DNA of 64,000 nucleotides, taken from an uncultured Thermoanaerobaculia bacterium. GTDB lineage: Bacteria; Acidobacteriota; Thermoanaerobaculia; Thermoanaerobaculales; Sulfomarinibacteraceae. Location: positions 66,545 through 130,544 of the forward strand of contig CAZXMW010000001.1 of NCBI GenBank assembly GCA_964641415.1, written 5' to 3'. The notes beneath the pieces are model-generated. The model had not been told where the DNA came from and made no database searches. It saw only the letters and a program-made list of their open reading frames with translations. Each line of letters opens with the position of its first letter. The stretch's first letter is position 1. Positions 37,952 to 62,805 of the stretch are shown here, in pieces. Both the position numbers and the translations under genes were made by a program.

Positions 37952-38128
37952 GATCGGCGAGCCCGAGCCCGCGACCTGGTCCGCGACGGGGCTGTCCGGT
38001 AATCTGCTCACGCGCGCTCCAAACCTGGAAGCTCGATCCGGCCACTGCACTTCATTCTACCCGAAGCTCCACCCGGAACGACGTTTCCGGCTCGGCGCCA
38101 GAGTCAGAGGGCCGCGTCGTCCGGGCGG

Positions 38129-45544: not shown

Positions 45545-48055
45545 ATGAGCATGCCGGTTCGAAGCAACAAGCTCGCCATGCCGCCCGAGCAGGCGATGCG
45601 CGCGCTGCGGCGCGGCGAGTTCGAGTCCAGCGATGAGCGCGACTGGCTGCTCGACGTGGTCAGCCAGGCGCAGGTCTCCGAGCCGCGCGAGTTTCTCTGG
45701 ATGCTGTTCACGCCCGACCGTTCGCTGCGCGAAGCGGGCTCGGAGCTGGCCCGCGGTTGCCGCGACGTGACGCTGGTGGATCGCTTCGTCGAGCACTGCC
45801 GGCGCGCGCCGGACGCCGCGGTTCGTGCCGCCTGCGCGGGCCTGTTCGCGGCTGCTGTGCCGGGTACCGAGCAACGCCTGCTCGAGCTGGCGTCGTGCGA
45901 CGACCCGATTGTCGCCGGTCTGGTCAACCGCATCGCCGCAGAGGCGCCGCCGTCGAGGGCGCTCGAACCTCTGTACTGGCAGCTCGCACGCTCCGGCGCC
46001 ACCGCCGGCCAGCGCGTCGTCTTCATCGAGCGGCTCGCGGCCCTGGGCCTCGACCAGGGCGGCCTGGACCGGTGGCGGGAGCTCGCCGACGACGAGGAGA
46101 CGCCGGTGCGCGAGGCGGCGCTGAGCGTGCTCGCGGCGACGGCCGCAGAGAGCTGTGTGGAGCTCCTGATCGCGGCGTTGCCGGAGGTCGGATACGGGGT
46201 CCAGCAGCACCTCATCGCCGGTATCGCGAGCGTCGCCGTCGCCCGGGGTCCCGAGTTCGCCGACCGCGTCCTGCCCCTGATGGCATCCGGCGATCCCGGG
46301 ACCCGGACCGCCGTGCTCAAGATCCTGCTGCAGATGGGGGACCGGAGGGAGCTGGTCAAACGATATCTGAACTTCTCGCGCACGCTCGCGGGCTGGATCC
46401 GGGACCGCGCGCTCGAGTCGATGCGGGAGTTCGGCCCCGATCTCGCCGAGCCGACCATCGAGCTGCTCGGCGATCCCGACGAGTCGGTGCGGGGCGCGGC
46501 GGTCCTGGTTGCGAGCTCCTTCGAGGACCCGAGGGTCGTGCCGGCCACCCTGCCGTTGCTCGAGGACCCGGACTGGTGGGTGAGGATCACCGCCGCCGAA
46601 AGCCTGGGCCGGATCGGCGACCCCCGGGCGGTTGCCGCCCTGTGCGAGGTGCTCGACGAGCCCGAGACGCGGTGGGCGGCAGTGGAGGCCCTCGGGCGGA
46701 TCGGCGATGCCCGGGCGCTGCCGGCGCTCGGCAAGCTGCTCAAGGACCCCGCCGCCGAGGTCCGCATCGAGGTCCTGCTCGCGCTGCGCAACTTCCGGCA
46801 CCCGCGCATCCTCAAGGTGATCACCGGGGTCGCGGCCAACGATCCCGACCGAGTCGTGCGGGCGCGCGCCCTGGAGATTGCCGAGGAGCTCGCGACCCGC
46901 GACGAGACCGAGCTCGACGACCACAAGGCGCTGAAGGCCCGGGCGCACCGGCTCGGGGTGTCCGACGGCGAGCCGAGGCTCCACGGCCTGCTCGTGACGA
47001 CCCGGGAGCGGGAGGCATCGGACCTCCACCTGTCGGTCGGATGCGAGCCCACGATCAGGCTCGGCGCCGATCTCATCGGGCTCGGCGGGCCGCCCATGAC
47101 CGCCGCCGACACCGAGATCCTGGTTCGCGGCATCCTCACCGAGGACCAGCTGTCTCGATTGCGGCGGGACCGCCAGATCGACCTCTGCTACTACATCCCC
47201 CGGGCCGGCCGCTACCGGGCCAACGTCTTCGTGGACCACAAGGGGACCAATGCCGTCTTCCGGGTCATCGCCGAAAAGCCGCCGACGATCACCGACGTCG
47301 GCCTGCCCTCGCACGTCGCGGACATCGCATCCCACCACCAGGGGCTGGTGCTCGTGTGCGGTCCGGCAGGCAGCGGCAAGACCACCACCCTCGCCGCCCT
47401 GGTCAACCTGTTCAACGAGACCAGGCACCTGCACGTGATCACCCTCGAGGATCCGGTGGAGTTCGTGCATCCGTTCAAGAACTGTCTCGTCAACCAGCGC
47501 GAGGTCGGCAGCCACACGCGGTCCTTCGCCCGGGCGCTGCGGGCGGCCCTGCGCGAGGATCCCGACCTGATCATGATCGGCGACCTGCGCGACACCGAGG
47601 CGATGGCTCTCGCCCTGACCGCGGCCGAGACCGGCCACATCGTCTTCGGCACCCTCAACTCGGTGGACGCGGTCAAGGCGGTGGGCCGCGTCATCTCGTC
47701 GTTTCCGGCCAGCCGGCAGGCGCAGATCCGCGCCGCCCTCGCCGACTCGCTGCGGCTCGTGATCGCGCAGCGGCTGCTGCCAGGGACCGAACCCGGGGCG
47801 CGGGTCGCCTGCTTCGAGATCCTCAAGGGCACGCTGTCGGTGAGCCACCTGATTCGCGAGGACAAGCTCGTCCAGCTGACCTCGGCGATGCAGGTGGGAC
47901 GGAGCAAGGGCATGCAGCTGTTCGACGACGCCCTCAAAGACCTGGTCCGCCGTGAGCGGATCGCGCCCGAGACCGCCTACCTCGCCGCCAACGACAAGGA
48001 CGCCTTCGAGCCGCTGGTGTCGGAGGAGTTCCTCGCGAGCCGGACCTTCCTGTGA
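45545..48055 (+). CDS. HEAT-repeat domain fused to a PilT-family hexameric ATPase (836 aa)
   Basis: The N-terminal 470 aa or so carry PBS-lyase/HEAT-like repeats (DPDWWVRITAAESLGRIGDPRAVAALCEVLDEP..WAAVEALGRIGDARALPALGKLLKDPAAEVR). The C-terminal PilT core reads EASDLHLSVGCEPTIRL, Walker A GPAGSGKTT, HVITLEDPVEFVH, REVGSHT.SFARALRAALREDPDLIMIGDLRD, GHIVFGTLNS. Confidence 0.85.
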   Translation: MSMPVRSNKLAMPPEQAMRALRRGEFESSDERDWLLDVVSQAQVSEPREFLWMLFTPDRSLREAGSELARGCRDVTLVDRFVEHCRRAPDAAVRAACAGLFAAAVPGTEQRLLELASCDDPIVAGLVNRIAAEAPPSRALEPLYWQLARSGATAGQRVVFIERLAALGLDQGGLDRWRELADDEETPVREAALSVLAATAAESCVELLIAALPEVGYGVQQHLIAGIASVAVARGPEFADRVLPLMASGDPGTRTAVLKILLQMGDRRELVKRYLNFSRTLAGWIRDRALESMREFGPDLAEPTIELLGDPDESVRGAAVLVASSFEDPRVVPATLPLLEDPDWWVRITAAESLGRIGDPRAVAALCEVLDEPETRWAAVEALGRIGDARALPALGKLLKDPAAEVRIEVLLALRNFRHPRILKVITGVAANDPDRVVRARALEIAEELATRDETELDDHKALKARAHRLGVSDGEPRLHGLLVTTREREASDLHLSVGCEPTIRLGADLIGLGGPPMTAADTEILVRGILTEDQLSRLRRDRQIDLCYYIPRAGRYRANVFVDHKGTNAVFRVIAEKPPTITDVGLPSHVADIASHHQGLVLVCGPAGSGKTTTLAALVNLFNETRHLHVITLEDPVEFVHPFKNCLVNQREVGSHTRSFARALRAALREDPDLIMIGDLRDTEAMALALTAAETGHIVFGTLNSVDAVKAVGRVISSFPASRQAQIRAALADSLRLVIAQRLLPGTEPGARVACFEILKGTLSVSHLIREDKLVQLTSAMQVGRSKGMQLFDDALKDLVRRERIAPETAYLAANDKDAFEPLVSEEFLASRTFL

Positions 48056-48068
48056 GGGTGGTGGCGAC

Positions 48069-49130
48069 GTGACCGAGAAACGCCGGATCGACCGTTTTCT
48101 GAAGCTGATGAACGACCGGGGTGCGTCCGACTTCCACCTCACGGTCGGCCGGCCGCCCATGCTCCGGGTCTCCGGGGCGATTCAGCAGGTCCGCTACCGG
48201 ACCATCCGGGAGGTCGACTTCACCGAGCTCCTGGAGCCCGTCACGCCGGCCGAGGCGTGGGCCGAGTTCCAGGACACCGGCGACGCCGACTTCGCGTACG
48301 AGCTGCCGGACGTCGCTCGCTTCAGGGTCAACCTGTTCCGCCAGCAGCGCGGCTCGGGAGCGGTGCTCAGGGTCGTGCCGTCGAGGATCATGAATCTGGA
48401 GCAGCTCGGCCTGCCCCGGCAGATCCGCCGCGTGGTCGACATCCGCAGTGGGCTCGTGCTGGTCACCGGGCCCACCGGTTCCGGCAAGTCGACCACGCTG
48501 GCCGCGATCATCGACCTCATCAACGAGACTCGCAGCTTCCACATCATCACCATCGAGGAGCCGATCGAGTTCGTCCACCACAACAAGCGCAGCATCATTC
48601 ACCAGCGCGAGGTCGGTCGCCACGCGGCGAGCTTCACCGATGCGCTCCGGGTCGCCGGCCGACAGGATCCCGACATGATCCTGGTCGGCGAGATGCGCGA
48701 CTCGGAGACGATCTCGATGGCCCTCCAGGCGGCGGAGAAGGGGACCATCGTCTTCGGCACCCTGCACACGAACTCGGCGGTCCGGACGGTAGATCGGATC
48801 GTCAACTCGTTCCCCGCCGACGAGCAGGCTGGGATTCGCGGCGTTCTCGGCGACAGCCTGCGGGCGGTCATCGCCCAGCAGCTCCTGCCGCGGGTCAACG
48901 GCGGGCGGGTCGCGGCGATCGAGTTCTTCCTCGGCTCGCCGGCATCGGCGAACATCATCCGCGAGGGCCGCAGCTCGCAGCTGACCTCGCTCATCCAGAC
49001 CGGCGTCAGGGACGGCATGATCGAGATGGACCAGTCGATCCGCGCTCTCTACGAAGCGGGCGTCGTCAGCGGCCGCGCCGCCTACGACAAAGCCATCGAC
49101 AAGGAGCAGTTCAAGGACCTGCCGAGATGA
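48069..49130 (+). CDS. pilT: PilT-type twitching-motility/retraction ATPase (353 aa from GTG 48069; ORF opens at 47952)
   Basis: GASDFHLTVGRPPMLRVSGAIQQV, Walker A GPTGSGKSTT, HIITIEEPIEFVH, REVGRHAASFTDALRVAGRQDPDMILVGEMRD, GTIVFGTLHTNSA, NIIREGR. GTG 48069 lies 14 nt after the upstream stop. Confidence 0.9.
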   Translation: MTEKRRIDRFLKLMNDRGASDFHLTVGRPPMLRVSGAIQQVRYRTIREVDFTELLEPVTPAEAWAEFQDTGDADFAYELPDVARFRVNLFRQQRGSGAVLRVVPSRIMNLEQLGLPRQIRRVVDIRSGLVLVTGPTGSGKSTTLAAIIDLINETRSFHIITIEEPIEFVHHNKRSIIHQREVGRHAASFTDALRVAGRQDPDMILVGEMRDSETISMALQAAEKGTIVFGTLHTNSAVRTVDRIVNSFPADEQAGIRGVLGDSLRAVIAQQLLPRVNGGRVAAIEFFLGSPASANIIREGRSSQLTSLIQTGVRDGMIEMDQSIRALYEAGVVSGRAAYDKAIDKEQFKDLPR

Positions 49131-49270
49131 GCGCCTGAGCGGTCGCGGGTCCGGCCCGGGCGCGGTCGGATGGGCGTGGCGACCCCCCCCCTGCTGCGAC
49201 CCGCCCGGGACGCGGGAGCGGGCCGTGCGCCCGCAGCGCTTTCCTGCCGGAGTCGGCAGCGCCGGGAGCG

Positions 49271-50347
49271 TCAGGTCTCGGGCGCTGCCGCGGCCGAGCG
49301 ACCGCCGCCGAGCAGGCGCCGTGCCGCCTCGATGTCCGGCGCGAAGACGTCGGCGCCGAGCTCCCGCCAGAGCTCGGGCGCGACCCGAAACGCGGCGCCG
49401 CCGAGGACGATTTGCAGCTCGCCGTCGAAGCGGGCGCGCGCTGCCTCGACCAGCCTTCGAACGGACGGGATGTTGAAGAGCATCGTCGTCGAGATCCCGA
49501 GAGTGTCGGCGCGGTGGCCCGCGACCGCGTCGAGCACGCCTTCCAGCGGCAGGTTCGAGCCCAGAAAACGGACCGACCAGCCGTCGCTCTCGAGCACGTC
49601 GGCCACCATCTGGGCGCCGACCTGGTGCAGCTCGCCCTCGACGCCGGTGACCACCATCCGGCCCGTTTCGGCGCCCGTTGCCGGCGCCCGGCCGGAGTCG
49701 ACACGGGCCATGACGTACTGGGTGATGGCGGTCGCCATGTGCTCGTCGGCGACCGTGATCCGGTTGGTCTCCCACCGGCGTCCGACCTCGACCAGCGCCG
49801 GCTGCAGCACCTCGAGGTAGAGCCCGGCCAGGTCGTGGCCGCGGCGGAGGAACTCGTCGGCGACGGTCGACGCGGCCCTGCGGTCGCCGAGCAGGATCGC
49901 CTCGACGAAGACCGCGGCGTCCTCGCCGTAAGCAGGGTCGCGGGCGCCGGGCGCGTCCTCCCCGCAGGTCGCGACGCCGGCTGCAAGCATGGCCCTGACC
50001 GCGCGGCCGGCCTCCGGGTCGAGGCGGTGGTCGAGCAGCCCTGCAATCAGCTCGAGGGACTCGACGAGCGCCGACCGCGGCACCTGCCGCGACTCGAGGA
50101 CCACGGCCGTCCAGCGCACGAAGTCCGTGAAACCGCGCTCGGCGCCGGTCTCGACGGCAGCCGCGAGGAAGCTCATGATGAACGCTGCGTCGTCGCGGGT
50201 GTGACGACGCCCGCGCTCGCCGAACCGCTCGGCGAAGTCCGGATGGCGGTCGAAGTAGATGCGGGTCAGGTCGTCGGCGACGGGATCGCTGAGCTGGCGC
50301 AGCGCCGCGCCCCAGCGCCGGCGGGTCGAGCCATCGACGTGGTTCAT
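49271..50347 (-). CDS. Stand-alone cobalamin (B12)-binding protein with CarH-type photoreceptor motifs (358 aa from ATG 50347)
   Basis: The Wx9EH motif (RWETNRITVADEH) and lower-ligand motif ExHxxG (GELHQVG) are followed by a Rossmann-like B12-binding fold (..GWSVRFLGSNLP...ADTLGISTTM..). No MerR or other HTH domain. ATG lies 2 nt after the upstream stop. Confidence 0.85.
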   Translation of the reverse strand: MNHVDGSTRRRWGAALRQLSDPVADDLTRIYFDRHPDFAERFGERGRRHTRDDAAFIMSFLAAAVETGAERGFTDFVRWTAVVLESRQVPRSALVESLELIAGLLDHRLDPEAGRAVRAMLAAGVATCGEDAPGARDPAYGEDAAVFVEAILLGDRRAASTVADEFLRRGHDLAGLYLEVLQPALVEVGRRWETNRITVADEHMATAITQYVMARVDSGRAPATGAETGRMVVTGVEGELHQVGAQMVADVLESDGWSVRFLGSNLPLEGVLDAVAGHRADTLGISTTMLFNIPSVRRLVEAARARFDGELQIVLGGAAFRVAPELWRELGADVFAPDIEAARRLLGGGRSAAAAPET

Positions 50348-50349
50348 TC

Positions 50350-51279
50350 TCACACCTCGCTCTTTTCCGGTGCGTCGTGGTCGGAGATGCCGAGCTCCCG
50401 GGCACAGTCGGGACAGTAGCCGTGACTGAGGAACAGCGAGTGCGCCTTGAGATAGTCGACCACGGTCTCCCAGCGTAGCTCGCCGGTCTTGACCCGTCCG
50501 CACTCCATACAGATCGGCAGCACCTCCTGAATCTTCTTCAGGTGCCAGTAGGATGTGTTGAGCTCGTTGACGGTCCGCTCGAGCTCGGCGCGCGCCGCCT
50601 CGAGGTCGCGGGCCTTGCGGGCGTCGTCCCGGGTCAGCACGATGAGCTCGGCGTTGAGCTCGAGGAGCTGGCGCCGGAGCTTCGCCTCGCGGCCCCGGGG
50701 CGGCGCCCCGAGAATCAGCGCCCCTCCCGGAACCCGCTGGATGCGGCAGGTGAGAGTTTCAGGCAGGCTCGTCGGGCCGGCGAGGTTGAGCAGGAGCTCG
50801 ACCGGCTCGCCGGCCTCGTCGGCGATCGCGGCGGCGACGGTTCGCGCGTCCGGCTCGGTCAGGAGCTCGGCGACGGGCCGGCCCGCGAGGGCCTGAGGCG
50901 CGGCGCCGAGCAGGTCGGCAATGGCGCCGCTCGCCTCGATCACGGCGCCCTGCCGGTCGACGGCGAGCCAGTGGGCATCCTCGGGATCCGCCAGCAGGCG
51001 CTGCAGCAGCTCCATGGCGCCGGCGGCGAGCCACCCCGAGTCAGGTCTGAGTTCGGCCCCTGAGGTGTCGAAGCGCGCCACGACCTCGACCTTCTCGGGC
51101 TCGGCGTCGAGGAACCGGCCGAGGGCCTCGTCGTCGCTCCACCGCGCCAGGAACTGTCCCCTGGTTTCGCCTGCGCCGATCTCGACGGCCAGGCAGCCGG
51201 GCGTTGCCAGGGCCCGCCCGGCGACCCCGCCGGCATCGCCGGCATCTCGGGCGACAGCGAGGATCGCTGCGACCGTCAT
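50350..51279 (-). CDS. Sensor-like protein: N-terminal alpha/beta domain, PAS-like, coiled coil, C-terminal Cys4/His zinc-ribbon (309 aa from ATG 51279)
   Basis: AAGGTG RBS. The PAS-like block reads WLAVDRQGAVIEASGAIADLLG..LAGRPVAELL. The coiled coil reads AKLRRQLLELNAEL...ELERTVNELN. The C-terminus reads LPICMECGRVKTGELRWETVVDYLKAHSLFLSHGYCPDC. Confidence 0.75.
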   Translation of the reverse strand: MTVAAILAVARDAGDAGGVAGRALATPGCLAVEIGAGETRGQFLARWSDDEALGRFLDAEPEKVEVVARFDTSGAELRPDSGWLAAGAMELLQRLLADPEDAHWLAVDRQGAVIEASGAIADLLGAAPQALAGRPVAELLTEPDARTVAAAIADEAGEPVELLLNLAGPTSLPETLTCRIQRVPGGALILGAPPRGREAKLRRQLLELNAELIVLTRDDARKARDLEAARAELERTVNELNTSYWHLKKIQEVLPICMECGRVKTGELRWETVVDYLKAHSLFLSHGYCPDCARELGISDHDAPEKSEV

Positions 51280-51688
51280 CTCACACCTTTGTCGGGGCTG
51301 AAGACTCTGCCGATCATCTGCCTGTCCATGCCGTGCCTCGCGTCCCATGCAGAGGTCATCATATACCCCACCATCGCGTAGGCCCACGGGGAGGCGTCGC
51401 CGCGCTCGACGTCGACGGCTTCGAAGCTCAGCCCGCCGCTCCGGGGCCGCCGGTTCCGGCTCGTCGTGCATAAAATCGTCATCTTCCTCGCGTCCGGGTG
51501 TGCGTCGTCGTACACTGAGAGCAGGGTGAGGGTCGGTCGACATTGAACGCGTCGAGCCCGGAGCGCGCGACCGGCTTGACAACCCGGTGTCGAACGCAAG
51601 CTCGGCGGGCCCGGAAAGAGGCCGGTCGAGGACGGGAGGCCGGCGACGAGCGGGACCCGGCCCCGAACCAGCCGGATTGGGAGGGTTC

Positions 51689-52450
51689 ATGACCGACCGC
51701 GACGACAGGGCGCGACCGTCACGCCTGGGATCGGTTCCGCGCCAATCCGAAGATCTCGTCGCCCCGAGCGCTGCCGGTCGGCGCGCCGACGACAGCCGGA
51801 CGATCATCGCTGCCCTGCCGACGGAGATTCGCGACAACCTCGAGCGCTCGATCCTCGGGCGCGACGACCTTCACGTCCGCTTCGTCGCCGAGCTCGAGGT
51901 CGCGCTCCAGCTCGTCTACCGCCGGGCGCCTGCTCTGCTGCTCGTCTACGACGCCGGCGCCGGCGAGGTCCCGCGGCTGCTCGCCGGCCTCGAGCGCGCC
52001 GTGAAATCGAACACCTTCCCGGTCATCGTGCTTGCCGAGTTCCCTGACGAGAGCTACCCGCGGATCGTCACTCGGGCCCTGCCGGTGGACATGGACGCCG
52101 GTGAGCTGAGCGTCGTCATCGCCCAGGCGGTCCAGCTGCCCACGCGTGCCCGCCGGCGGCATCTCATTCGGGTCGGTGTCCGCCTCGACGATCCCATCAG
52201 CCTCGCGGCCACGGGCAACACCGTCGACGTCAGCGCTTCCGGCATGCTCATCGAGTGCACCAAGCGGCTTCGGGTCGGCGACCTCTACCAGGTGTCGATC
52301 CTCGGCGTCGGCGACGTGCCGATGCTCAGCCTGCGCCTGGTTCGCGAAGCCGACGCGTCCCACCCCAACCTCCATCGCTACGGCGGCGCCTTCGAGGGCG
52401 TCGAGCCCGACGTGGTCGAAGAGCTGATCCGCCGCCTCGCCGACGCGTGA
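51689..52450 (+). CDS. PilZ-domain c-di-GMP receptor with degenerate receiver-like N-domain (253 aa)
   Basis: GGGAGGG lies upstream of ATG 51689. PilZ motifs are RARRRHLIR (RxxxR) and DVSASGMLIE (D.S..G). The N-domain resembles a receiver (ALLLVYDAG...PVIVLAEF) but lacks the acidic pocket. Confidence 0.8.
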   Translation: MTDRDDRARPSRLGSVPRQSEDLVAPSAAGRRADDSRTIIAALPTEIRDNLERSILGRDDLHVRFVAELEVALQLVYRRAPALLLVYDAGAGEVPRLLAGLERAVKSNTFPVIVLAEFPDESYPRIVTRALPVDMDAGELSVVIAQAVQLPTRARRRHLIRVGVRLDDPISLAATGNTVDVSASGMLIECTKRLRVGDLYQVSILGVGDVPMLSLRLVREADASHPNLHRYGGAFEGVEPDVVEELIRRLADA

Positions 52451-52505: not shown

Positions 52506-55500
52506 TCAGGACGCGCCGGATGCGTCGAGCATCTGCCTGACCTTGGCTGCCAGGTCCGAATGGGAGAACGGCTTCTGGATGAAGTGGACGCCCTCGTCCA
52601 GGATGCCGCGATGGGCGATCACGTTCGCCGTGTAGCCGGACATGAAGAGCGCCTCCAACCCAGGGTGCAGGGCCAGCAGACGGCCGGCCAGCTCCCGCCC
52701 GGTCATCTCGGGCATGACGACGTCGGTGATCAGGAGATGGATCATCTCCGCGTTGCTCTCGGCCAGGGCGATCGCCTCTGACGGCGAGGCGGCCGGCAGC
52801 ACGGCGTAGCCCAGCCGCTCGAGCATGGTCGCGACCAGCTTGAGCACCAACGGCTCGTCCTCGACGACCAGAACCGTCTCGCCGCCGCTGGCCGGCGCCG
52901 GCGCCGGCTGGCGGCGGTCGACGGCAGCGCCGTGATCACCGACGTGGCGGGGCAGGTAGACCTTCATCGACGTCCCGTGCCCGAGCTCGCTGTAGACGTT
53001 GACGAAGCCGTCGTTCTGCTTGACGATGCCGAACACGGTCGACAGCCCGAGCCCGGTGCCGCGCCCGACGCCCTTGGTTGTGAAGAAGGGCTCGAAGGCG
53101 TTGGCGACGGTCTCCTCGTCCATGCCGTGCCCGTCGTCGCTCACGGCAAGCAGGACGTACGCGCCCGCCCGGAAGCCGGCATGGTCGCGGCAGTACTCCT
53201 CGTCGATGTCGACGTTGGCGGTCTCGATGGTGATCTTGCCGACGCCGTCGATGGCGTCCCGCGCGTTGACGCACAGGTTGGCGAGAATCTGGTCGAGCTG
53301 AGACGGGTCGAGCTTGACCGGCCAGAGTTCGAACCCGGGTTGCCAGACCAGGTCAATATCCTCGCCGATCAGGCGACGGAGCATCCTGAGCATGCCCTCC
53401 ACCGTCGCGTTGAGGTCGAGCACCTCGGGCCTGATGGTCTGCTTCCGGGCGAAGGCCAGCAGCTGTCGGGTGATGTCGGCGGAGCGCCGGGCCGCCTCGA
53501 CGATCTGTCTGAGGTCCTCGCGCAGGGGATCGTCGGCGCCGGTCCTCGACAGGGCGAGCTCCGCGTACCCGCTGATCACGCTCAGCATGTTGTTGTAGTC
53601 GTGGGCGACGCCGCCCGCCAGACGGCCGACGGCCTCGATCTTCTGGGCGTGGTTGAGCTGGGACTCCAGGTTGCGCCGCTCGGCCTCGGTCCGGATGCCG
53701 GCCAGCGCGTAGGCGAAGTCGCCGTTCATCTCCTCAAACAGGCTCAGCTCCTCGTCGTCGACGTCGAGCCGGCCCTCGACGGCCGCCGCCAGGTAGCCGT
53801 ACGTGCGGCCGTCGTGGGTGATGGGGGCGCACAGGGATTGCCCGTCCTCGCAGGCGCCGGCGATCGGGCAGCCGCCGCAGATCTCGGCGCGGTCCTCGAC
53901 GATGATGACATCGTTGACGCTTTTCGCACGCTCGCAGCACGGCGGCAGCTCGCCCTGCTCGAGCATGCCGGCGAGCGGGCGCGAGGCCGCGGCCAGGCCC
54001 TCCATGGCCCACGACACCGGCCGGTCGTCGTCGTCGGTCAGCACGATCAGGGCCGACAGGTAGCCGCGGCTTGCCACCAGCAGCCGGCATCCGGCGGCGA
54101 TGAGACGCTCCGGGTCCCGCTCTCGGACGATGAGCTGGTTGACGTCGCGGATCCCCCGCAGCACCCGGTTGAGGTGCTCGGTCCTGCGCCGTGTGGCGAC
54201 GTGATCGGTGACGTCGACGACGGTGGTCAGGAAGTGCAGCGGCTTTCCGGCAGCGTCCCGCCGGATGGATGCGCTGACGTCGGCCCAGACCTCCGATCCG
54301 TCCTTTGTGAGGTAGCGCTTCTCGAACCTGGCCGCGTCGGTCTCGCCGGAGAGCAGCGGCGCGATCGCTCGTTCGCTCGCCTCGATGTCCTCGGCCGGGG
54401 TGAGGTCGCGCCAGGTCTTGCCTTCGAGCTCGTCGAGGGTGTAGCCCAGGAAGTCCGCGTAGGCCTGGTTGGCGTCGATCTCGCCGGTCGGCAGGGTGAT
54501 CGACTTGCCGACGTTCGCGGCCTCGAACACGTGCTGGAAGCGGTCGAGGCTGTCCTCGAGCTCGCAGGTCCGCTGCGCGACCTGCCGCCGCAACGTCCAG
54601 GACCACGCGAACGCAGCCCCCAGAACCAGCAGCAACGGCACGATCACGACTGCCGAGGCGCGCAGCGCCCTGATCAGCGTCGAGCCGGGCTCCGGGTAGA
54701 CGCCGAGCCACTTACCGTAGATCCGCCGGTAGTCGCCGCTGTGCTCGACGGCCTTGAGCCCCTCGCCGAGCTCGGCCAGCAGCGCCCTCTGTCCCGCAGC
54801 GACCGCGTAGCAGTACTCCGAGCTGAGCAGCGGCGTCTCGTCCGGCACGAGGTCGGTCCAGCCGTTCCTCTCGATCAGGTACAGCGCGGTGATGCGCGAG
54901 ACCAGGGCGCAGTCGTGGCGGCCGCCGGCCAGCTGCCGCAGGGCCTGCTCCTGGTCGTCGACCGCGGTCGCGCGCTGCTCGAGACCGTTGGCCACGACGA
55001 AGTCGTGCAGAATTTCGCCCCGCTCGACGACGATGTCCAGCTGACCGAGCTCCTCGACCGATCGCGGCGCCGGCCGCTCGCCGCGCCGGACGACCGCGAC
55101 GTGGTGGCTCACCGTGTGCGGCTGGGTGAAGTCGAAGGCCAGGTCTCGGTCGGGCGAGTAGAACATCCCCTGCAGGGCGTCGACCCGCCCGTCGTGCAGG
55201 GCGTCGAGCCGCTCGCTCCACAGGCCGAGCCTGATCTCGACGTTGAGCCCGAGCTCGCGGGCGATGGCGCGGGTCAGGTCGACGTTGAAGCCGGCCGGCC
55301 GGCCGTGCTCGTCGAGGAACTCGAAGGGCGGGAAGTTGCGGTCGCCGCCGATCACGATCGGCCGGTCCGGCGGCAGCTGCATGGCGGCGAACCACTCGGC
55401 GTGGAGGCGCCTGAAGGCGCCGTCCGCCATCACGATCGCGAGCCCCTCGTTGAGCAGGGCCAGGGTGTCGCGATCGCCCTCGTGGACGGCGAAGCAGAAG

Positions 55501-56255
55501 TCCTGGACGAAGCCCGCCACCGGCTGCTCGACGACCCGGAGATCGGTCAGGCCGGTCTCTTGAATGAGGCGCAGGGCGACCAGCCGCTGGACGATCACGG
55601 CGTCGTGCAGCCCGTCGGCGAGCTCCCGGAAGGCGACCTCGAAGGTCGGCGTGGTCCGGATGTCGATCTCGAGCGCCTGGCGGCGCAGGAACTCCTCGGC
55701 GTTGTCGCCCGCCATCACCGCCACCCGGCGGCCTTTCAAATCGTTCAGATCGCGGATTGCCAGCTCGTCCTGCCGGACCACGATCGCGCCGTGGAGGGTC
55801 ATGTACGGCACCGTGAAGTCGAACAGGCCTTCGCGCTCCGGAGTCCGGCCGACCAGGGGCAGGGCGTCGACCTCGCCCCGCTCGAGCCAGCCGCGGACCT
55901 CATTCCACGGCCCGGTACGGAAGCTGACGTCGCGCCCCATCGCCGCCAGCGCCGCCCGCATGAGCTCCACCGAGAAGCCCCCGGCGGCGCCGGCGTCGTC
56001 GACCAGGCTGAACGGCGGGTAGTCGAGCTCCGCCGCGGAGCGCAGTGCTTGTCCGCCTCCGTCCGGCTCGCCGGCGGCGGCCGCCGACACGGCAAGCGCC
56101 GTCAGACAGGCCAGGGCGGCCGCGACCCGGCGGCTTGCGGACCTCCGCCGGCCGCGGTCTGCCGCGGCCTTCCGGGTCGATCGGGGCTCTGGTCGTCGGT
56201 CGATCATTTCGTCCGTGGCGATTCTACCTTCGACCCGACCGCTCCGCGTGGACAC
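52506..56255 (-). CDS. Hybrid sensor kinase: 2 periplasmic solute-binding modules, TM, PAS, GAF, HisKA, HATPase, REC (1249 aa; alternative ATG 56207)
   Basis: Two SBP-type-3-like modules ([13 protein letters not shown]..., [16 protein letters not shown]...) and a TM helix [19 protein letters not shown]-box is [14 protein letters not shown] boxes are [23 protein letters not shown]. Receiver reads VLVVEDE...[10 protein letters not shown]. Confidence 0.9.
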
Positions 56256-56306
56256 GATCTCAGCTTCGCCCGAAGCACCTTTCGGGGTCGGGATGGCGGT
56301 TTGCGC

Positions 56307-58679
56307 TCAGTCATCGGGGTCCAGGACCTCTCTCACCTTCGCGGCGAGCTCAGCCATCGAGAACGGCTTCTGGATGAAGTGCGCGCCTTCGTCCAGGACG
56401 CCGTTGCGGGCGATGATGTCGGCGGTGTAGCCGGACATGAAGAGCACCGCGATGCCCGGTCGGAGCTCCGCGACCCGGTCGGCGAGCTCGCGGCCGCTGA
56501 TCTGCGGCATGACGACGTCGGTGAGAAGGAGGTGAATCGGGATCGCGTCGTCGCCGGCGACGGCAAGGGCCTCGTCGGCGGTGCTCGCGGTCAGCACCGT
56601 GAAGCCGAGCCGCTCGAGCAGCTTCCGGCCGACCGCTAGGATCGCCGGGTTGTCCTCGGCCAGCAGCACCGTCTCGCCCGCGGTGGCGCGGGGCGGCTGT
56701 CGGGCCGGCGCCGGGCCGCCGTCGACCGTGCCCTCCCGGCAGGGCAGGAGAATGGTGAAGGTGCTGCCCCGCGCGACCTCGCTGTCGACCCGAACCAGGC
56801 CACCGCTCTGGCGGACGATGCCGAACACGGTGGCGAGGCCGAGACCGGTGCCGACGCCGGTCCCCTTGGTGGTGAAGAAGGGCTCGAAGAGGTGCGACTG
56901 GACCTCCTCGGTCATGCCGCAGCCGTCGTCGGCGACCGACAGGGCCGCGTAGCGCCCGGGCGAGGCCTCCGGGATCGACGCGCAGTCGGCCTCGTCGAGC
57001 TCCTCCGCCCCGGTGGCGATGGTGATGGTTCCGGCGCCCGAGATGGCGTCGCGGGCGTTGACGCACAGATTGGTCACCGCGTGGTCGAGCTGGGCCGGGT
57101 CGACCTCGACCGGGTCGAGGCCGGCGCCCGGCCGCCAGACCAGCTCGACGTCCTCGCCGATGAGCCGGCGCAGCATGGTCAGCAGCCCTTCGACGGCGTC
57201 GTTGAGGTCGAGCAGCTGCGGCGAGATGGTCTGCTTGCGGGCGAAGGCGAGCAGCTGTCGGGTCAGCTCCGCGGACCTGGATGCGGCGGCGTGGATCTCC
57301 ACGAGGTCCTCGGTCCGGGGGTCGTCCGGCGCCGACTCCATGAGGGCAAGCTCGCTGCGGGCCAGGATCACCCCGAGCATGTTGTTGAAGTCGTGGGCGA
57401 CGCCGCCCGCCAGCCGACCCACCGACTCCATCTTCTGGGCCTGGAGCAGCTGCGCCTGCAGCCGCTCGCGCTCGTCCTCCGCGCGCTTGCGATCGGTCAC
57501 GTCGAGGAGGAAGTTGAGGGTCGCCGGCCGGCCCTGCCACTCGACCACGACCGCGCCGATCTCCACCCACCGCACCTCGCCGCTGCGGTGGAGGATCCGG
57601 AACGAGTAGACCTCCGGCAGCTGCTCGCCGGCGAGCCGCTTTAGGTGGTTGTCGACCACCCGGGCGCGGTCTTCGGGGTGGATGTGGTCGGCGAAGGGCG
57701 TGCCCTCGAGCTCCTCGGGCGTGTAGCCGAGCAGGCCAATCGCCTTGCGGTTGACGAAGGCGAAGCGCCCGTCCTGGGCGATGAGTACCAGCTCGTTGGC
57801 GTTCTCGACCAACAGACGGTAGCGCTCCTCGCTCTCCCTCAGCTTGTCGATCGCGCGACGGTGCTCGGTCAGGTCGACGCCGAGACAGGTGACGTCGACG
57901 AAGGCGCCGCGGGCGTCCCGGGTGACGACGTTGGACCAGGCGACGTTGCGGAGCTCGCCCGACCGGGTCACGATCTCGTTCTCGTACGACGTGATGGCGA
58001 CCGAAGGGTCGCTTGCCACCACCGACAGGAAGAACTCGAAGACCTGGGCGCGGATCGCCTTCGGGACGAAGAGCTCGAACCAGTTGCCGCCGAGGACCTC
58101 GTCCTCGCTCCAGCCGGTGAGCTCGAGCAGGTGGGCGTTGGCGAAGACGATCCGGCCCTCGGAGTCGAGCGAGACCCCGATCTGCGGCGTCTCGACCAGG
58201 ATGTTCCGCCACTTGCGCTCGGACTCGACCAAGGCAGCCTCGGCTCGGCTCGCCCGGATCATCGCCGTGCACGCCCTCGGCAAAGGCTGGATCGACGTCA
58301 CGACGTCCTCGGCATAGTCGTCGCTGCGGTTCGCCACGCCGACCACGCCGATCACCTCGTCGCCGGCCAGCAACGGGATCCCCAAGAAGCGCGTGATCGG
58401 CGGGTCGTTTTCGGCGCACCCTCGAAACCGCGGGTCGTGCAGGACGTCGTTGGCGATCACGAGGCGGCGCTCGACGACCGGGGCGCCGGCCAGGGCATCG
58501 AGCTCTTGAAGCTCGGCCCGCTCGGTCTCCAGGTCGTCGAGGAGATCGCCACCCGGAGCTTCCGAAGCGATGTCCAGCAACGCCAGGCGGCGCTTGACCC
58601 ATCGTCCGTCGGGGCCGAGCAGAACCTCGTCGAGGAAGCCGTAGGCGCTGCCGGTCGAGCGGACGAGGATCTCGAGCAT
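56307..58679 (-). CDS. Hybrid sensor kinase: GAF, 2 PAS, HisKA, HATPase, REC (790 aa; possible N-terminal extension, see findings)
   Basis: GAF block reads GFLDEV...GIPLLAGDEVIGVVGVANR. PAS blocks are present. H-box is GGVAHDFNNML; ATP boxes are [23 protein letters not shown]. Receiver reads VLLAEDN...LLLTDVVMPQ. Confidence 0.9.
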   Translation of the reverse strand: MLEILVRSTGSAYGFLDEVLLGPDGRWVKRRLALLDIASEAPGGDLLDDLETERAELQELDALAGAPVVERRLVIANDVLHDPRFRGCAENDPPITRFLGIPLLAGDEVIGVVGVANRSDDYAEDVVTSIQPLPRACTAMIRASRAEAALVESERKWRNILVETPQIGVSLDSEGRIVFANAHLLELTGWSEDEVLGGNWFELFVPKAIRAQVFEFFLSVVASDPSVAITSYENEIVTRSGELRNVAWSNVVTRDARGAFVDVTCLGVDLTEHRRAIDKLRESEERYRLLVENANELVLIAQDGRFAFVNRKAIGLLGYTPEELEGTPFADHIHPEDRARVVDNHLKRLAGEQLPEVYSFRILHRSGEVRWVEIGAVVVEWQGRPATLNFLLDVTDRKRAEDERERLQAQLLQAQKMESVGRLAGGVAHDFNNMLGVILARSELALMESAPDDPRTEDLVEIHAAASRSAELTRQLLAFARKQTISPQLLDLNDAVEGLLTMLRRLIGEDVELVWRPGAGLDPVEVDPAQLDHAVTNLCVNARDAISGAGTITIATGAEELDEADCASIPEASPGRYAALSVADDGCGMTEEVQSHLFEPFFTTKGTGVGTGLGLATVFGIVRQSGGLVRVDSEVARGSTFTILLPCREGTVDGGPAPARQPPRATAGETVLLAEDNPAILAVGRKLLERLGFTVLTASTADEALAVAGDDAIPIHLLLTDVVMPQISGRELADRVAELRPGIAVLFMSGYTADIIARNGVLDEGAHFIQKPFSMAELAAKVREVLDPDD

Positions 58680-58845
58680 CTGGCGGTAGGCGAGTCGGGG
58701 GTTGACCCCTGCGAGAACGAGCTCGTGCGCCCGGTTGACGGCGGCAAGGAGCTCGTTCTGTCTCGCGATCTCGGCGACGCCGGCGTCCGCGTCGACGTTC
58801 GGGCGACCAGTCCGGTCGTTGTCGGCGTTGATGGCTGCCCTCCTC

Positions 58846-61800
58846 TCAGTCTTTCCGCTCCAGCGCCTCGCTGACCTTGATCGCGAGCTCGGCCATGGAG
58901 AACGGCTTCTGGATGAAGTGAACGCCGTCGTCGAGCACGCCCTGGTGGGCGATGACGTCGGCGGTGTAGCCCGACATGAACAGGCGCTTGATCTTCGGGC
59001 ACAGGGACAGCAGGCGGCGCGCCAGGTCGCGGCCGTTCATCTCGGGCATGACGACGTCGGTGATGAGCAGGTCGATGTCGCCGGCGTGCTCCTCGGCGAT
59101 TCGGATCGCCTCGCCCGGCGTCGCCGCGGTGAGCGGCCGATAGCCGAGGCGCTCGAGCATCCGCGCGCCGAGGGCGAGGATCGCGGGCTCGTCCTCGACC
59201 AGCAGAATCGTCTCGTTGCCCGCGGGCGCCGGAAGCGCGGCGTCATCGACCTTCACGGCTCCCGACCCGGCGTGCGCCGGTAGGTAGATCCGGAAGGTGC
59301 TGCCGTGGCCCGGCTCGCTGTAGACGTTGACCGCGCCCCGGTTCTGCCGGACGATGCCGTGCACGGTGGCGAGGCCCAAGCCGGTGCCCTCGCCGACGGC
59401 CTTGGTGGTGAAGAAGGGCTCGAAGATCTTGGCCATGGTGTCGGTGTCCATGCCGGGCCCGTCGTCGCTGACGATGAGCGTGACGTAGTCGCCCGGCGAC
59501 AGCTCGAGGCGACCGGCGTAGGCCTCGTCGTCGATGTACGTCCGACCGGTCTCGATGGTGATGGCGCCGCCGTGGTGGCCGATGGCGTCCCGGGAGTTGA
59601 CCACGAGGTTGGTCAGGAGCTGGTCGAGCTGGGCCGGGTCCAAACGTACCGGAGCGAGCCCGCTTCCCGGCTTCCAGACCAGCTGGATGCTCTCGGTGAC
59701 CAGCCGTCGCAGCATCTTGAGCGCCGTCTCGACGGTCCGGTTGAGGTCGAGCACCCGAAGCGCGATGGTCTGCTTGCGGGCGAAGGCGAGCAGCTGGCCG
59801 GTGAGGTCGGCCGAGCGGCGGGCGGCGGCCGCGATCTCCTCGAGGTCGGAGCGGATCTCGGCGTCGGCGGGCAGCTCGCCGAGGGCGAGCTCGGCGTGGC
59901 CGAGGATGACGTTGAGCTGGTTGTTGAAGTCGTGGGCGACGCCGCCGGCGAGACGGCCGATGGACTCCATCTTGTGGGCCTGAAGAAGCTGGGCCTCGAG
60001 CCGCTTGCGCTCGCTGACGTCGCGCAGGCTGCCGATGATCCGCTCCGGCCGGCCGTCGGCGCCGGGCTGGATCCGGGCCGAGATCGAGCACTCGACCGCA
60101 CCGCCGTCGGGTGTTTTGAGCGCGATCTCGTAGTCCGACACCGCGCCCCGCCGCTCGAGCTCGGTGAGCAGGCGCGCCCGGGCCTCGGGCTCGGCGTAGA
60201 GGTCGAACAGGGACCGTCCGATGAGCTCGTCGCGCCGGTACCCTCCGGACAGCCGCTCGACCGACGGGCTGACGTCGACGATCGTGCCGTCCATGGTGAC
60301 CTCGTAGAATGCGTCCTGGGCGTTCTCGAACAGACCCCGGTAGCGCTGCTCGCTGTCGGCGAGGGCGCTCTCGGTTCGCTTGCGCTCGACGATCTCGCCG
60401 ATCAAGCGGGCGGCGGCGCCGAGCCGCTTCTTGGCGAGCTCGACGATGAACGGCGGCCGGGACTCGTATGCCTCCGCCTGCCGCCGCAGCTCGTCCTCGT
60501 CGACCCGGTAGCGCTCGGCGAGCTCGCGCAGCCGGGCCGGGTCCTGGGGCGGGTCGCCGTAGCCGAAGTTGACCGCGCCGACGACGTCGTCGCCGGCGAC
60601 GACCGGGACGGCGTGGATCCGAAGGCCGCCGTGGCACTCGACGTCGGCGGGCGCGCCGGTCCGGATGCTCTCAAGCGAGGCGTCGCTCCAGCACGACTCG
60701 TGGCACAGCCAGCGGCCGCACGCCAGCGCCTCGCGGTCGTCGTCGGTGTCGCACAGCCGGCGCGACGCCGCGTCGAGGAAGCGGCACCATCCCGACGAGA
60801 AGATGCCGAGGGCGTAGTCGCCGCCGCGCTCGTAGACCGCGGCGGAGGTTCCCAGAAGGTCCAGGTAGTCGGAGACGATGTCGGTCAGCAGCTCGGGGCC
60901 GACCGAGCTGCGGATGAGGCCGTCGGCGTTGAGCCCGGTGAGGTCGCCGTACGGGGGCTCGTAGGACGCCGGGGCCGGCGCCGGCCGGCTGCTCAACAGC
61001 CACTCGATCCGGTGCAGCGCCCGCTCGCCCTCGGCGGTCTCGACCGATTTCCAGACCGCGTCCATGAGCAGGGTCAGCTCGAGGGCGTCGGTGTCGTCGT
61101 AGTCGCCGTCCTTGTTGGCGACGCCGACCACGGCGACGATCCGGTCGCGGTCAAAGACCGGCACCGTGAGAAAGCTCCTCAGGTGGACATGGCCCTCGGG
61201 GACCCCCCTCTTGAGCGGGTGCTCGGCCTGGAAGTCGTTGATGACGATCGGACGGCGCTGGCGCACCGCCTCGCCCCAGATCCCGGTCCGGTCGAGCTCG
61301 TAGCAGGTCTGCGGGTCGGCGACGGAGCACTCTGCCATGACCTCCTTGGACCAGATGTTGAGGACGAGCTCGCGGCGGTCCTCGTCGTAGAAGTAGATGG
61401 AGCCGATCGAGCTTCCGGTCAGCGCGATCGCCCGGTCGAGGGCGTGGTCGAGGAACGCCTGCGTGTCGCCGGCGTCGTGCTGGAGGATCTCGACGATCGC
61501 CTCGAGTCGCTGGTGGTGACGCGCGGCTCGTTGCTCTGCCCGGACGCGTTCGGTGATGTCCCGGAGGGTCCCGATGACGAGCTTGTGTTCGGGGTCGAAT
61601 CGGGCGACCGAGTGGATGTGGCGGACGGCGCCGTCCGACGGGCGCTCGATCTCGAAGACGACGTCGTAGGGTTTCCCGTCGCTGATGAGGCCGTCGAGCG
61701 CGGCGTCGAGCATCTCGCGGTAGCGGGGCAGCGGGATCGCCTGCACGGCCTCGATCGTCCATCGGGCATCGCCGAGCCCGTAGATCCTGTGCGCCTCGGG

Positions 61801-62805
61801 CGACGCGATGACGTCGCCGGTGTCGAGGTCGAAGCGCCACGAGCCGACCTTCGCGATGGCCTGGGCGCGCTCGAGCTCGTCCCGGCTGTCGCGGAGCATC
61901 GCCTCGGCCCGCCTGCGCTCGGTGATGTCGCGAACCGACGCCCACAGGTACTCGAGCTCGCCGGCGTCGTCGCGGACCGCGTAGGCGTGGAGCTCGACCG
62001 GAAAGACCGTGCCGTCCTTGCGGATGTACTCCTTCTCGTAGGCGCCCGACGCGCCGCCGGTCGGGAGGCGCTTGTGCCAGATCTCGGTCGCCTCCCACTC
62101 CCGCCAGCGCTCCGGGGTGATCTGGTAGAAGTCGGCCAGTCCCCGCAGCTCGTCGAGGGAGTAGCCGAGCATGTCGCAGTAGGCCCGGTTGGCGTCGAGG
62201 ATCCGGCCGTCGCCGTCGACCATGACAAAGCCGTCCCGCGAGCCTTCGAAGATCTCCCGGTAGCGCCGGCGGGCGTCCTCGAGGCGCTCGGCCGTGTCGA
62301 TCCTGTGCAGTGCGAAGCCGAGGTCGCCGGCGAGCTCGGCGAACAGGCTCTGCTCCTCGTCGTCGTCGGCGAAGGCGTGGGCAACCGACACCGTGAGCAC
62401 GCCGAAGGTCCGGTTGCCGAACTCGAGACGTCGGCTCAGCACGCTGCGTCCGGCATCAGCTTCTTCCGGCAGAGGACAGTCCTCGCACTCGGCGGCCGGG
62501 TCGGTGAGCGTGACCACGGAGGCGCCCTCGAGGGCGCGTCGCATGCAGGTCGGCCACTTTCCCTCGTCAAGCCGTGCGCGCAGCGCCGCCAGGCCGTCGC
62601 CGAGCCCCGATCCGGTCAGCGCCGCCACCCGGGCGCCGGTCTCGTCGAGCAGCGCGATCCAGGCGTTGTAGTAGCTCAGCCCCTCGGTCAGGACGTCGCA
62701 GGCGCCCTCGATCAGCCGTTGGCGGTCGTTCTCCTTGGTGATCAGCTGGTTGACGTTGCGGATCGCCCGCAGCACCGCGTTGAGCCGCTCGACGTGCTCA
62801 AGCAT
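58846..62805 (-). CDS. Hybrid sensor kinase: GAF, PAS, PAS, GAF, unassigned Cys-rich region, PAS, HisKA, HATPase, REC (1319 aa)
   Basis: H-box is GGVAHDFNNQL; ATP boxes are NLVVNSRDAI, DDGPGM, GTGLGLA. Receiver reads ILLVEDE...[10 protein letters not shown]. Multiple PAS (..DGDGRILDANRAYCDMLGY..) and GAF (..VPVFDRDRIVAVVGVANK..) blocks. Confidence 0.9.
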   Translation of the reverse strand: MLEHVERLNAVLRAIRNVNQLITKENDRQRLIEGACDVLTEGLSYYNAWIALLDETGARVAALTGSGLGDGLAALRARLDEGKWPTCMRRALEGASVVTLTDPAAECEDCPLPEEADAGRSVLSRRLEFGNRTFGVLTVSVAHAFADDDEEQSLFAELAGDLGFALHRIDTAERLEDARRRYREIFEGSRDGFVMVDGDGRILDANRAYCDMLGYSLDELRGLADFYQITPERWREWEATEIWHKRLPTGGASGAYEKEYIRKDGTVFPVELHAYAVRDDAGELEYLWASVRDITERRRAEAMLRDSRDELERAQAIAKVGSWRFDLDTGDVIASPEAHRIYGLGDARWTIEAVQAIPLPRYREMLDAALDGLISDGKPYDVVFEIERPSDGAVRHIHSVARFDPEHKLVIGTLRDITERVRAEQRAARHHQRLEAIVEILQHDAGDTQAFLDHALDRAIALTGSSIGSIYFYDEDRRELVLNIWSKEVMAECSVADPQTCYELDRTGIWGEAVRQRRPIVINDFQAEHPLKRGVPEGHVHLRSFLTVPVFDRDRIVAVVGVANKDGDYDDTDALELTLLMDAVWKSVETAEGERALHRIEWLLSSRPAPAPASYEPPYGDLTGLNADGLIRSSVGPELLTDIVSDYLDLLGTSAAVYERGGDYALGIFSSGWCRFLDAASRRLCDTDDDREALACGRWLCHESCWSDASLESIRTGAPADVECHGGLRIHAVPVVAGDDVVGAVNFGYGDPPQDPARLRELAERYRVDEDELRRQAEAYESRPPFIVELAKKRLGAAARLIGEIVERKRTESALADSEQRYRGLFENAQDAFYEVTMDGTIVDVSPSVERLSGGYRRDELIGRSLFDLYAEPEARARLLTELERRGAVSDYEIALKTPDGGAVECSISARIQPGADGRPERIIGSLRDVSERKRLEAQLLQAHKMESIGRLAGGVAHDFNNQLNVILGHAELALGELPADAEIRSDLEEIAAAARRSADLTGQLLAFARKQTIALRVLDLNRTVETALKMLRRLVTESIQLVWKPGSGLAPVRLDPAQLDQLLTNLVVNSRDAIGHHGGAITIETGRTYIDDEAYAGRLELSPGDYVTLIVSDDGPGMDTDTMAKIFEPFFTTKAVGEGTGLGLATVHGIVRQNRGAVNVYSEPGHGSTFRIYLPAHAGSGAVKVDDAALPAPAGNETILLVEDEPAILALGARMLERLGYRPLTAATPGEAIRIAEEHAGDIDLLITDVVMPEMNGRDLARRLLSLCPKIKRLFMSGYTADVIAHQGVLDDGVHFIQKPFSMAELAIKVSEALERKD

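Follow-up and report, generated by a model that had tools for sequence, protein, structure and literature searches.

The stretch of DNA analyzed here (the window) comprises 64,000 nucleotides of an uncultured Thermoanaerobaculia bacterium of the Sulfomarinibacteraceae (assembly GCA_964641415.1, contig CAZXMW010000001.1, positions 66,545 to 130,544 of the forward strand). On its minus strand it carries two adjacent genes, one encoding a photocobilin-type photoreceptor of 358 amino acids (aa) and the other, directly upstream, a partner protein of 309 aa that ends in a Cys4/His tail. The sensor is of a known kind, and its conserved coupling to this unannotated tail is undescribed in the literature and family libraries searched. 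The features of the locus, given in positions of the window, are the following:

49271..50347, minus strand: gene for the 358-aa photoreceptor of photocobilin type, in which a photoglobin, a 4-helix bundle and a Rossmann B12 domain follow each other
49967..50332, minus strand: five-helix photoglobin (bilin-binding type) domain, residues 6-127, from a 46-homolog profile
50189-50191 and 50111-50113, minus strand: D53 and W79, respectively, which correspond to bilin-binding residues of SasPcob; T50 and L84 lie in the same domain
49694..49924, minus strand: B12-binding_2 four-helix bundle, residues 142-218 (PF02607, E-value (E) 1e-15)
49739-49774, minus strand: GxxW and Wx9EH (W192...E202 H203), inside the B12-binding_2 bundle
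49307..49660, minus strand: Rossmann-type B12-binding domain, residues 230-347 (PF02310, E 5e-21)
49616-49633, minus strand: lower axial His motif E239-L-H241-Q-V-G244 in the Rossmann domain, which also holds G263xxxP267
50345..50358, minus strand: gene junction, with stop TGA at 50350-52, 2-nt spacer GA and ATG at 50345-47
50350..51279, minus strand: gene for the 309-aa partner, made up of a degenerate ABM domain, a PAS domain, a long helix and the Cys4/His tail
51055..51279, minus strand: degenerate ABM-like domain, residues 1-75, from alignment with ABM-bearing homologs
50704..50982, minus strand: PAS domain, residues 100-192 (Pfam PAS/PAS_4 above gathering score)
50527..50691, minus strand: single long signaling helix, residues 197-251, with a conserved LNxELxVLxRE motif (alignment and AlphaFold2)
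50404..50553, minus strand: conserved tail, residues 243-292, SYWHLKKIQEVLPIC-x2-C-x9-W-x15-H-G-Y-C-P-x-C

The start codon of the sensor gene lies 2 nt past the stop codon of the partner gene (TGA-GA-ATG), a spacing also given in a preliminary description of this DNA, and a Shine-Dalgarno-like hexamer, GAGGTG, is located at 50353-58 within the last codons of the partner gene. This layout suggests translational coupling. Scanning 48900-51800 for promoters and terminators returned no sites. At the other end of the partner gene, a 68-aa open reading frame (ORF; 51276-51482, minus strand), with a 4-nt overlap at the start codon, is annotated as a gene in public Logan data (contig L001, 1111-1317). 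No family matches it, and its composition resembles that of an out-of-frame artefact of high-GC sequence.

The 358-aa sensor

The sensor had been described as a CarH-type B12 module that lacks a DNA-binding domain, and this description holds. Pfam matches B12-binding_2 (residues 147-215) and B12-binding (residues 230-338), and neither Pfam nor NCBIfam detects a helix-turn-helix (HTH) or another DNA-binding family in the protein. The two hallmark motifs of B12 photoreceptors, Wx9EH, present in RWETNRITVADEH as W192-x9-E202-H203, and GELHQVG, i.e., E239-x-H241-xx-G244, are both in place and invariant in a profile alignment of 46 full-length homologs, as are G189, W192, E202, H203, E239, H241, G244 and G263 individually. 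The light-response elements defined by SignatureFinder (GxxW, EH, GxxH and GxxxP; PMC11796333) are complete, four of four, occurring as G189xxW192, E202-H203, G238xxH241 and G263xxxP267, and are invariant or nearly so in the same homologs. The AlphaFold2 model, of high confidence (predicted local distance difference test (pLDDT) 93; predicted TM-score (pTM) 0.89), has five helices at residues 6-127 and a four-helix bundle at 142-218, which a Rossmann domain follows. By sequence, the best relatives of the protein in the PDB are the photocobilins SasPcob (8j2w, E 5e-29, and 2e-51 with a profile) and AbPcob (8j2y), behind which come weaker matches to CtMerR, methionine synthase, CarH (E about 3e-9) and AerR (7te2, E 2.8e-6). 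When the cobalamin module is superposed with Foldseek, the root-mean-square deviation (rmsd) is 1.8 Å for both 8j2w and 8j2y, and the range against 8j2w, 8jbs and 5c8a is 1.8-3.7 Å. Sequence and model thus support a CarH-type light-responsive cobalamin module without DNA-binding domain, which, by homology, would bind adenosylcobalamin (AdoCbl) and undergo Co-C photolysis. CarH, LitR and CtMerR (PDB 5C8D, 3WHP and 8JBS) share the cobalamin fold and the signature residues, with Foldseek TM-scores of about 0.8 (target-normalized), whereas the 358-aa protein lacks their MerR HTH and has an extra bilin-type domain. Moreover, no His stands beside the conserved Trp, so that a CarH-style bis-His light state is unlikely. 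Assignment to CarH proper, the MerR-family photoreceptor repressor, was rejected because there is no HTH and the N-terminus is a globin-like five-helix domain.

This N-terminal domain is the part in which the preliminary description went astray. The first 130-140 residues had been taken for an AerR-like extension, a reading that is ruled out by the 46-homolog profile, positions 5-132 of which match the bilin domain of SasPcob (independent E-value 1e-8) and also allophycocyanin, phycocyanin and smURFP (E 1e-6 to 3e-3), and the domain is accordingly a phycobiliprotein-like photoglobin. In the PDB sequence search, residues 44-107 align, as a second stretch, with the C-terminal biliverdin-binding globin domain of SasPcob. 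The bilin-binding residues of SasPcob are Asp270 and Trp296 (PMC10979010), and these correspond in the alignment to D53 and W79 after a correction of +6, since the numbering of the SasPcob PDB entry runs 6 below that of the paper (the lower-ligand His is chain residue 102 and His108, respectively). D53, W79 and L84 are invariant in the 46 homologs, and T50, D53 and L84 match the Cys/Ser/Thr, Asp and Leu ligand positions of photoglobins (PMC8717448). Because a CarH-type module is fused to a photoglobin in which the Asp and Trp for bilin binding are retained, the 358-aa protein is, as judged from sequence and predicted fold, a photocobilin in permuted order, with the globin first. By analogy with its relatives, the photoglobin domain most likely holds a bilin. 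Membership of the AerR/PpaA antirepressors was likewise rejected, given the weak AerR score and a neighbor that is no PpsR homolog.

The resemblance to the characterized photocobilins, to which the protein is about 35% identical, is extensive. SasPcob and AbDPcob (Zhang et al., 2024; PDB 8J2W, 8J2X, 8J2Y) also combine a CarH-like B12-binding_2 and Rossmann module, with W-x-EH and E/DxH motifs, with a fused five-helix phycobiliprotein-like domain that carries the key Asp and Trp, and they too have no DNA-binding domain. They differ in the order of their parts, the B12 module being first and the bilin domain last, which is reversed in the 358-aa protein. This permuted order is itself already known. 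The photocobilin paper predicts from AlphaFold models a group with a C-terminal B12 module (PMC10979010), and the photoglobin paper reports both domain orders (PMC8717448). The N-terminal domain fits the photoglobin family described there (Schneider et al., 2022), and its fusion to B12-binding_2 and B12-binding follows one of the two orders given for that family. The 358-aa protein therefore adds a member to a known kind.

The 309-aa partner and its Cys4/His tail

The AlphaFold2 model of the partner (overall pLDDT 80) divides into four parts, an ABM-like unit, a PAS domain, a helix and the tail. Three of these agree with the preliminary description: the PAS-like core scores above the Pfam gathering threshold and is modeled with pLDDT >90, the heptad-rich linker is one 55-residue helix, probably forming a dimeric coiled coil, and the Cys-rich block CxxC...H...CPxC is confirmed by alignment. 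The vestigial ABM domain had been overlooked. Its residues 1-75 are modeled as a beta-alpha-beta-beta-alpha-beta unit (pLDDT 50-83) that lacks the 20-residue Trp/His-rich segment WHxSxxHxxSHxGIPxGLKL conserved in ABM-bearing homologs, and Pfam ABM gives no match in the 309-aa protein even at E up to 10. Among 84 homologs, a form of ~230 aa (PAS, helix and tail) and one of ~330 aa, which has an N-terminal Pfam ABM domain in addition, can be distinguished, and the latter carries the JGI name "heme-degrading monooxygenase HmoA". The closest models for the ABM domain of these homologs are those of ABM monooxygenases of the IsdG/HmuQ type, a full ABM homolog being nearest to the NCBIfam models for HmuQ and IsdG-type heme oxygenase with scores far under the cutoffs, whereas the domain of the 309-aa protein is truncated and undetectable by Pfam. 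Foldseek with the whole 309-aa model returned PAS matches only, including FixL, PpsR and LOV.

In an alignment of 37 homologs the tail has ten invariant residues (W245, K249, Q251, P255, C257, C260, W270, H286, C289 and P290), and C292 is present in 36 of the 37. The model places C257xxC260 on a beta-hairpin (254-264) and C289PxC292 at the start of a helix (290-295), with a pLDDT of about 72, and the predicted fold is treble-clef- or zinc-knuckle-like. The four conserved Cys together with this model suggest that the tail is probably a zinc finger. Neither Pfam nor NCBIfam returned anything credible at E up to 10, be it for the local type or for the 'CKKIRDD' type, and a PDB profile search gave no significant chain, the best being the Stc1 zinc finger (2luy, E 0.036). 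A full-text search with tail sequence strings found no paper, and a literature keyword search for a zinc-ribbon output domain found nothing relevant. The supplements of the photocobilin paper do not mention zinc or ABM, and a full-text search of the photoglobin survey for 'zinc' and 'ribbon' found no Cys-rich or zinc domain, although that survey lists ABM and PAS among the neighbors (PMC8717448). A ZAS anti-sigma assignment of the tail was rejected on its spacing, which is H-x2-C-x2-C here and H-x3-C-x2-C in ZAS; it is also disfavored in that the window genes scanned include none for a sigma factor.

That similar Cys-rich ends occur on sensors of unknown output in other bacteria had been stated in the preliminary description, and it is borne out. 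A profile built from 28 tail sequences matches 21,745 representative clusters with an E cutoff of 1e-3, or 13,022 if the cutoff is tightened to 1e-10, and the proteins that end in the tail have input domains as diverse as REC, REC x2 (with two tails), CHASE4, MASE6, Reg_prop/Y_Y_Y, PocR-PAS-GAF and ABM-PAS. Several proteins of ~500-550 aa (P0209, P0211, P0222, P0252 and others) contain two copies of the tail, arranged in P0222 as REC-tail-REC-tail, and several two-tail proteins are devoid of any Pfam domain. A Pfam scan of 10 long or two-tail representatives found no natural fusion of tail and B12 domains. Tail proteins that have no B12 neighbor show no specific conserved neighbor, generic two-component and sigma-54 activator genes being those that recur.

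Conservation of the gene pair

The co-occurrence of the two genes is not a peculiarity of this genome, as the pair is conserved across phyla. In all five homologs looked up singly, the partner gene is followed directly by a B12 gene of 353-381 aa, and the flanks of these five pairs are unrelated, ranging from KaiB, KaiC and hybrid kinase genes to toxin-antitoxin and restriction genes. A forward scan with one genome per species yielded 70 loci, 53 with close-subtype and 17 with distant tails. A B12-domain gene lies immediately downstream on the same strand in 47 of the 53 close-subtype loci, the only subtype that the scan samples, tail peptides having been used as patterns; at the 17 distant-tail loci there is none. 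In related loci the tail and B12 genes mostly overlap by 4 nt (ATGA or GTGA). The paired loci belong to Acidobacteriota, Gemmatimonadota, Planctomycetota, Armatimonadota, Verrucomicrobiota, Myxococcota, Desulfuromonadales and a gammaproteobacterial metagenome-assembled genome (MAG), and the pair is present in a cultured organism, Enhygromyxa salina DSM 15201. The link to B12 is kept where REC replaces PAS, i.e., in the REC-helix-tail proteins of Enhygromyxa salina, Verrucomicrobiota and Desulfuromonadales. In the last of these groups the B12 protein has no globin domain and is followed by a heme oxygenase fusion.

Several of these loci have additional features. In a deltaproteobacterial MAG (L081 585-4391, same contig as L053), genes for REC-GGDEF, REC-helix-tail, a globin-less B12 protein of 215 aa and a heme oxygenase of 429 aa with an extra C-terminal region follow each other, and in L044 and L052 a photoglobin-like stretch is found ~0.9 kb past the B12 gene. 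L002 1548-7753 contains genes for KaiB, a KaiC-like ATPase, a PAS hybrid kinase, a tail protein and a photocobilin in one direction, some with overlapping ends, an array that may provide light input to a Kai-type clock module. In L013 (652-2574) the photocobilin ORF extends to 640 aa because the catalytic domain of a microbial-type poly-ADP-ribose glycohydrolase (PARG) is read in the same frame, as either a real fusion or assembly read-through. A Verrucomicrobiota MAG (L054 2917-3489) and a Vicinamibacterales MAG (L063 719-1258) have a tail region ahead of the photocobilin (REC-helix-tail in L054) and, ~1.4-1.7 kb upstream of this region, a tail-less ABM/PAS-like gene. Thus, all three partner types can occur in one locus.

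In the reverse direction, 80 metagenomic loci with close photocobilin relatives were sampled, 68 of which have at least 350 nt of upstream sequence. The genes found upstream other than tail genes encode ABM-PAS-helix-GGDEF, PAS-helix-HisKA-HATPase-REC-Hpt, ABM alone, ABM-PAS, or PAS-helix without tail, and the PAS domain and LNNELAVLxRE helix of these proteins are the same scaffold as in the 309-aa protein. In a neighbor-joining tree of the B12 domains, in which partners were labeled by regular expressions and hence imperfectly, the sensors linked to GGDEF group in a single clade, and those linked to the tail are scattered among the remaining branches. Stand-alone ABM proteins of ~100-180 aa that keep the segment WHxSHxYxxSHxGIPKGLKL (L139, L141, L148, L149, L158 and L162) are encoded by genes that abut or overlap the starts of related photocobilin genes, which suggests a dedicated heme-degrading or bilin-related accessory.

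A candidate signaling mechanism and its alternatives

On balance, the pair is probably a translationally coupled two-protein light-signaling module in which the photocobilin acts on the PAS/helix/tail partner, a reading to which we give somewhat more than even credence. In this module, the CarH-type domain would, by analogy, bind AdoCbl with H241 as the lower ligand and W192, E202 and H203 in the adenosyl pocket, and would pack on the N-terminal photoglobin holding a bilin (D53, W79 and L84). Green light absorbed by AdoCbl, or red light absorbed via the bilin, would cleave the Co-C bond and change the dimer interface of the sensor. Lacking an output domain of its own, the sensor would act by protein-protein contact on the protein encoded just upstream, so that illumination might alter its contact with the dimeric PAS-helix protein and thereby switch the paired tails, the Cys4/His tail being the candidate output element that would bind a target. 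The early steps have precedents in other photocobilins, in which Co-C photolysis occurs in green light and also, via biliverdin, in red light, and the head-to-tail dimer of the dark state becomes a monomer in the light; the change of the dimer interface upon Co-C cleavage has been demonstrated experimentally for SasPcob and AbDPcob (PMC10979010). For the later steps, a fused diguanylate cyclase (DGC) is activated >10-fold by its photocobilin, and stand-alone photocobilins modulate DGC in trans according to light state (PMC10979010). Stand-alone photocobilins are, like the 358-aa protein, thought to act by protein-protein interaction. The main argument for the tail as output element is that it fills the position of GGDEF or the kinase core in the paralogous architectures. 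The contact between sensor and partner and the direction of signaling would follow from these domain swaps and from the operon structure, as would the proposed functions of the tail in output and in binding zinc, whereas folds, motifs and conserved gene coupling are established by alignments and structural models.

The same logic, an output-less cobalamin-fold sensor acting on a separate PAS/helix protein, is found in AerR-CrtJ and AppA-PpsR, and the PAS domain and helix of the partner resemble N-Q-PAS1 of PpsR (Foldseek 4hh2, 4hh3). However, the similarity of the sensor to AerR is weak (E 2.8e-6, as compared to 5e-29 for photocobilins), the partner is without an HTH and unrelated by homology to PpsR/CrtJ, and there are no photosynthesis genes nearby. 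The PAS-helix-Cys4 partner also differs from those listed in the photocobilin paper, which are STAS, SpoIIE and DGC (PMC10979010).

Several observations weigh against the proposed module. AbPcob shows that a domain of the bilin type can bind biliverdin weakly, and no bilin-producing enzyme is encoded among the window genes scanned. The ABM domain of the partner is degenerate. The tail is not basic, and the zinc binding predicted for it comes from the four invariant Cys and a model of moderate confidence (pLDDT about 72). Six close-subtype loci (L038, L046, L050, L057, L059 and L061) have no B12 gene and, in the reverse sample, the tail is upstream in only 17 of the 68 related photocobilin loci; the sensor is therefore not dedicated to the tail partner.

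An alternative that appears unlikely is that the upstream protein serves the photoreceptor, its ABM/PAS part supplying or sensing a tetrapyrrole (heme to bilin, as in IsdG/HmuQ) and handing the chromophore to the photoglobin, for which the two proteins would be co-translated. About half of the partner homologs do carry a full N-terminal ABM domain, the nearest NCBIfam models of which are heme-degrading HmuQ and IsdG-type heme oxygenase (below cutoffs), related photocobilin genes may be immediately preceded by ABM-only genes, in L081 the gene after B12 encodes a heme oxygenase fusion, and ABM and heme oxygenase are among the photoglobin neighbors (PMC8717448). However, the ABM domain of the 309-aa protein is Pfam-negative, its Trp/His-rich segment being deleted, many partners without ABM (the ~230-aa and REC forms) are still coupled, and chromophore supply leaves the highly conserved helix and tail unexplained. 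In addition, the full ABM domains presumably have Ser in place of the catalytic Asn of IsdG and MhuD, as judged by eye.

Similarly improbable is that the tail itself contacts the cobalamin domain, either as a docking site or by offering a Cys/His ligand to the photolysed cobalt, so that the sensor would sequester or release the tail and the site of action on the partner would be the tail rather than PAS or helix. The B12 gene follows the tail whether the input is PAS or REC, and the tail subtype linked to B12 retains 60-80% identity from phylum to phylum, as compared to 30-40% for PAS. Moreover, the His of the bis-His mechanism given for the CarH light state (PMC10979010) is absent from the sensor, E193 following W192, and the upper cobalt ligand could therefore come in trans. 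Against this contact stand the related photocobilins that pair with tail-less PAS-helix proteins (GGDEF, histidine kinase or truncated), the light state of SasPcob, which is simply water/hydroxide-ligated, and the lack of evidence from fusion or co-variation. Least probable of the alternatives is that what the B12 protein senses is the availability of cobalamin or the redox state instead of light, or that two independent sensors are merely co-transcribed. Same-fold B12 domains do serve in the non-photic corrinoid carriers MtbC and MetH, and relatives of the AerR and AppA type integrate redox signals (PDB matches 7te2, 4heh). However, every residue of the light-response signature is invariant, the nearest relatives of solved structure have been demonstrated to be photoreceptors, and the presence of a fused bilin-type domain favors light sensing. 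An accidental neighborhood of the two genes is, in turn, made less likely by a 4-nt overlap that is kept from phylum to phylum.

The function of stand-alone photocobilins is called unclear in the photocobilin paper (PMC10979010), and a translationally coupled partner conserved across at least eight phylum-level groups is a concrete candidate for it. A bolder proposal, which is possible but rather doubtful, is that PIC-x2-C...W...HG-x-CP-x-C represents a new widespread zinc-finger output domain and its 'KIQEVLPIC' subtype a dedicated effector or docking element of B12/bilin photoreceptors, which would supply the missing output of stand-alone photocobilins, possibly by direct contact with photolysed cobalamin. 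A short Cys4/His domain without family model or structure ends tens of thousands of PAS, REC, CHASE4 and MASE6 sensors, and finding the target of the tail would annotate a large class of "output-less" sensors. Furthermore, the permuted photocobilin and the recurrent ABM/heme-oxygenase neighbors suggest that chromophore supply may be built into these operons, which would be useful for the design of optogenetic tools.

The location of the pair had been taken as a hint of light or cobalamin input into surface behavior. A PilT-like ATPase and a PilZ protein do flank it, yet these neighbors, and with them the link to surface behavior, are shared by no related locus. A role in surface behavior in the Sulfomarinibacteraceae host is possible on the basis of local context, as the window is rich in genes related to surface behavior and cyclic di-GMP, which encode two giant DUF11/Calx-beta proteins, REC-GGDEF, REC-HD-GYP, two PilT-like ATPases, PilZ and many hybrid kinases. 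The giant proteins, of 4072 and 3525 aa, are encoded by tandem ORFs (550-12768 and 12970-23547, plus strand), contain 12-14 DUF11 repeats, 5-6 Calx-beta, cadherin-like, Big_9 and PKD domains, and are probably huge surface adhesins. The region 45545-48055 (plus strand) encodes an 836-aa protein in which HEAT/PBS-lyase-type repeats are fused to a PilT-like T2SSE ATPase, and the ORF of an ordinary PilT-like gene (47952-49130, plus strand) overlaps it by ~100 nt, the true start of the latter perhaps being further downstream. A dense signaling island (27251-38050 and 52506-63998) comprises at least six hybrid or plain histidine kinases and one single-REC protein; its members include REC-GGDEF (32707-33846), REC-HD-GYP (34749-35783), a kinase with two SBP_bac_3 domains (52506-56255) and a PocR-domain kinase (58846-62805).

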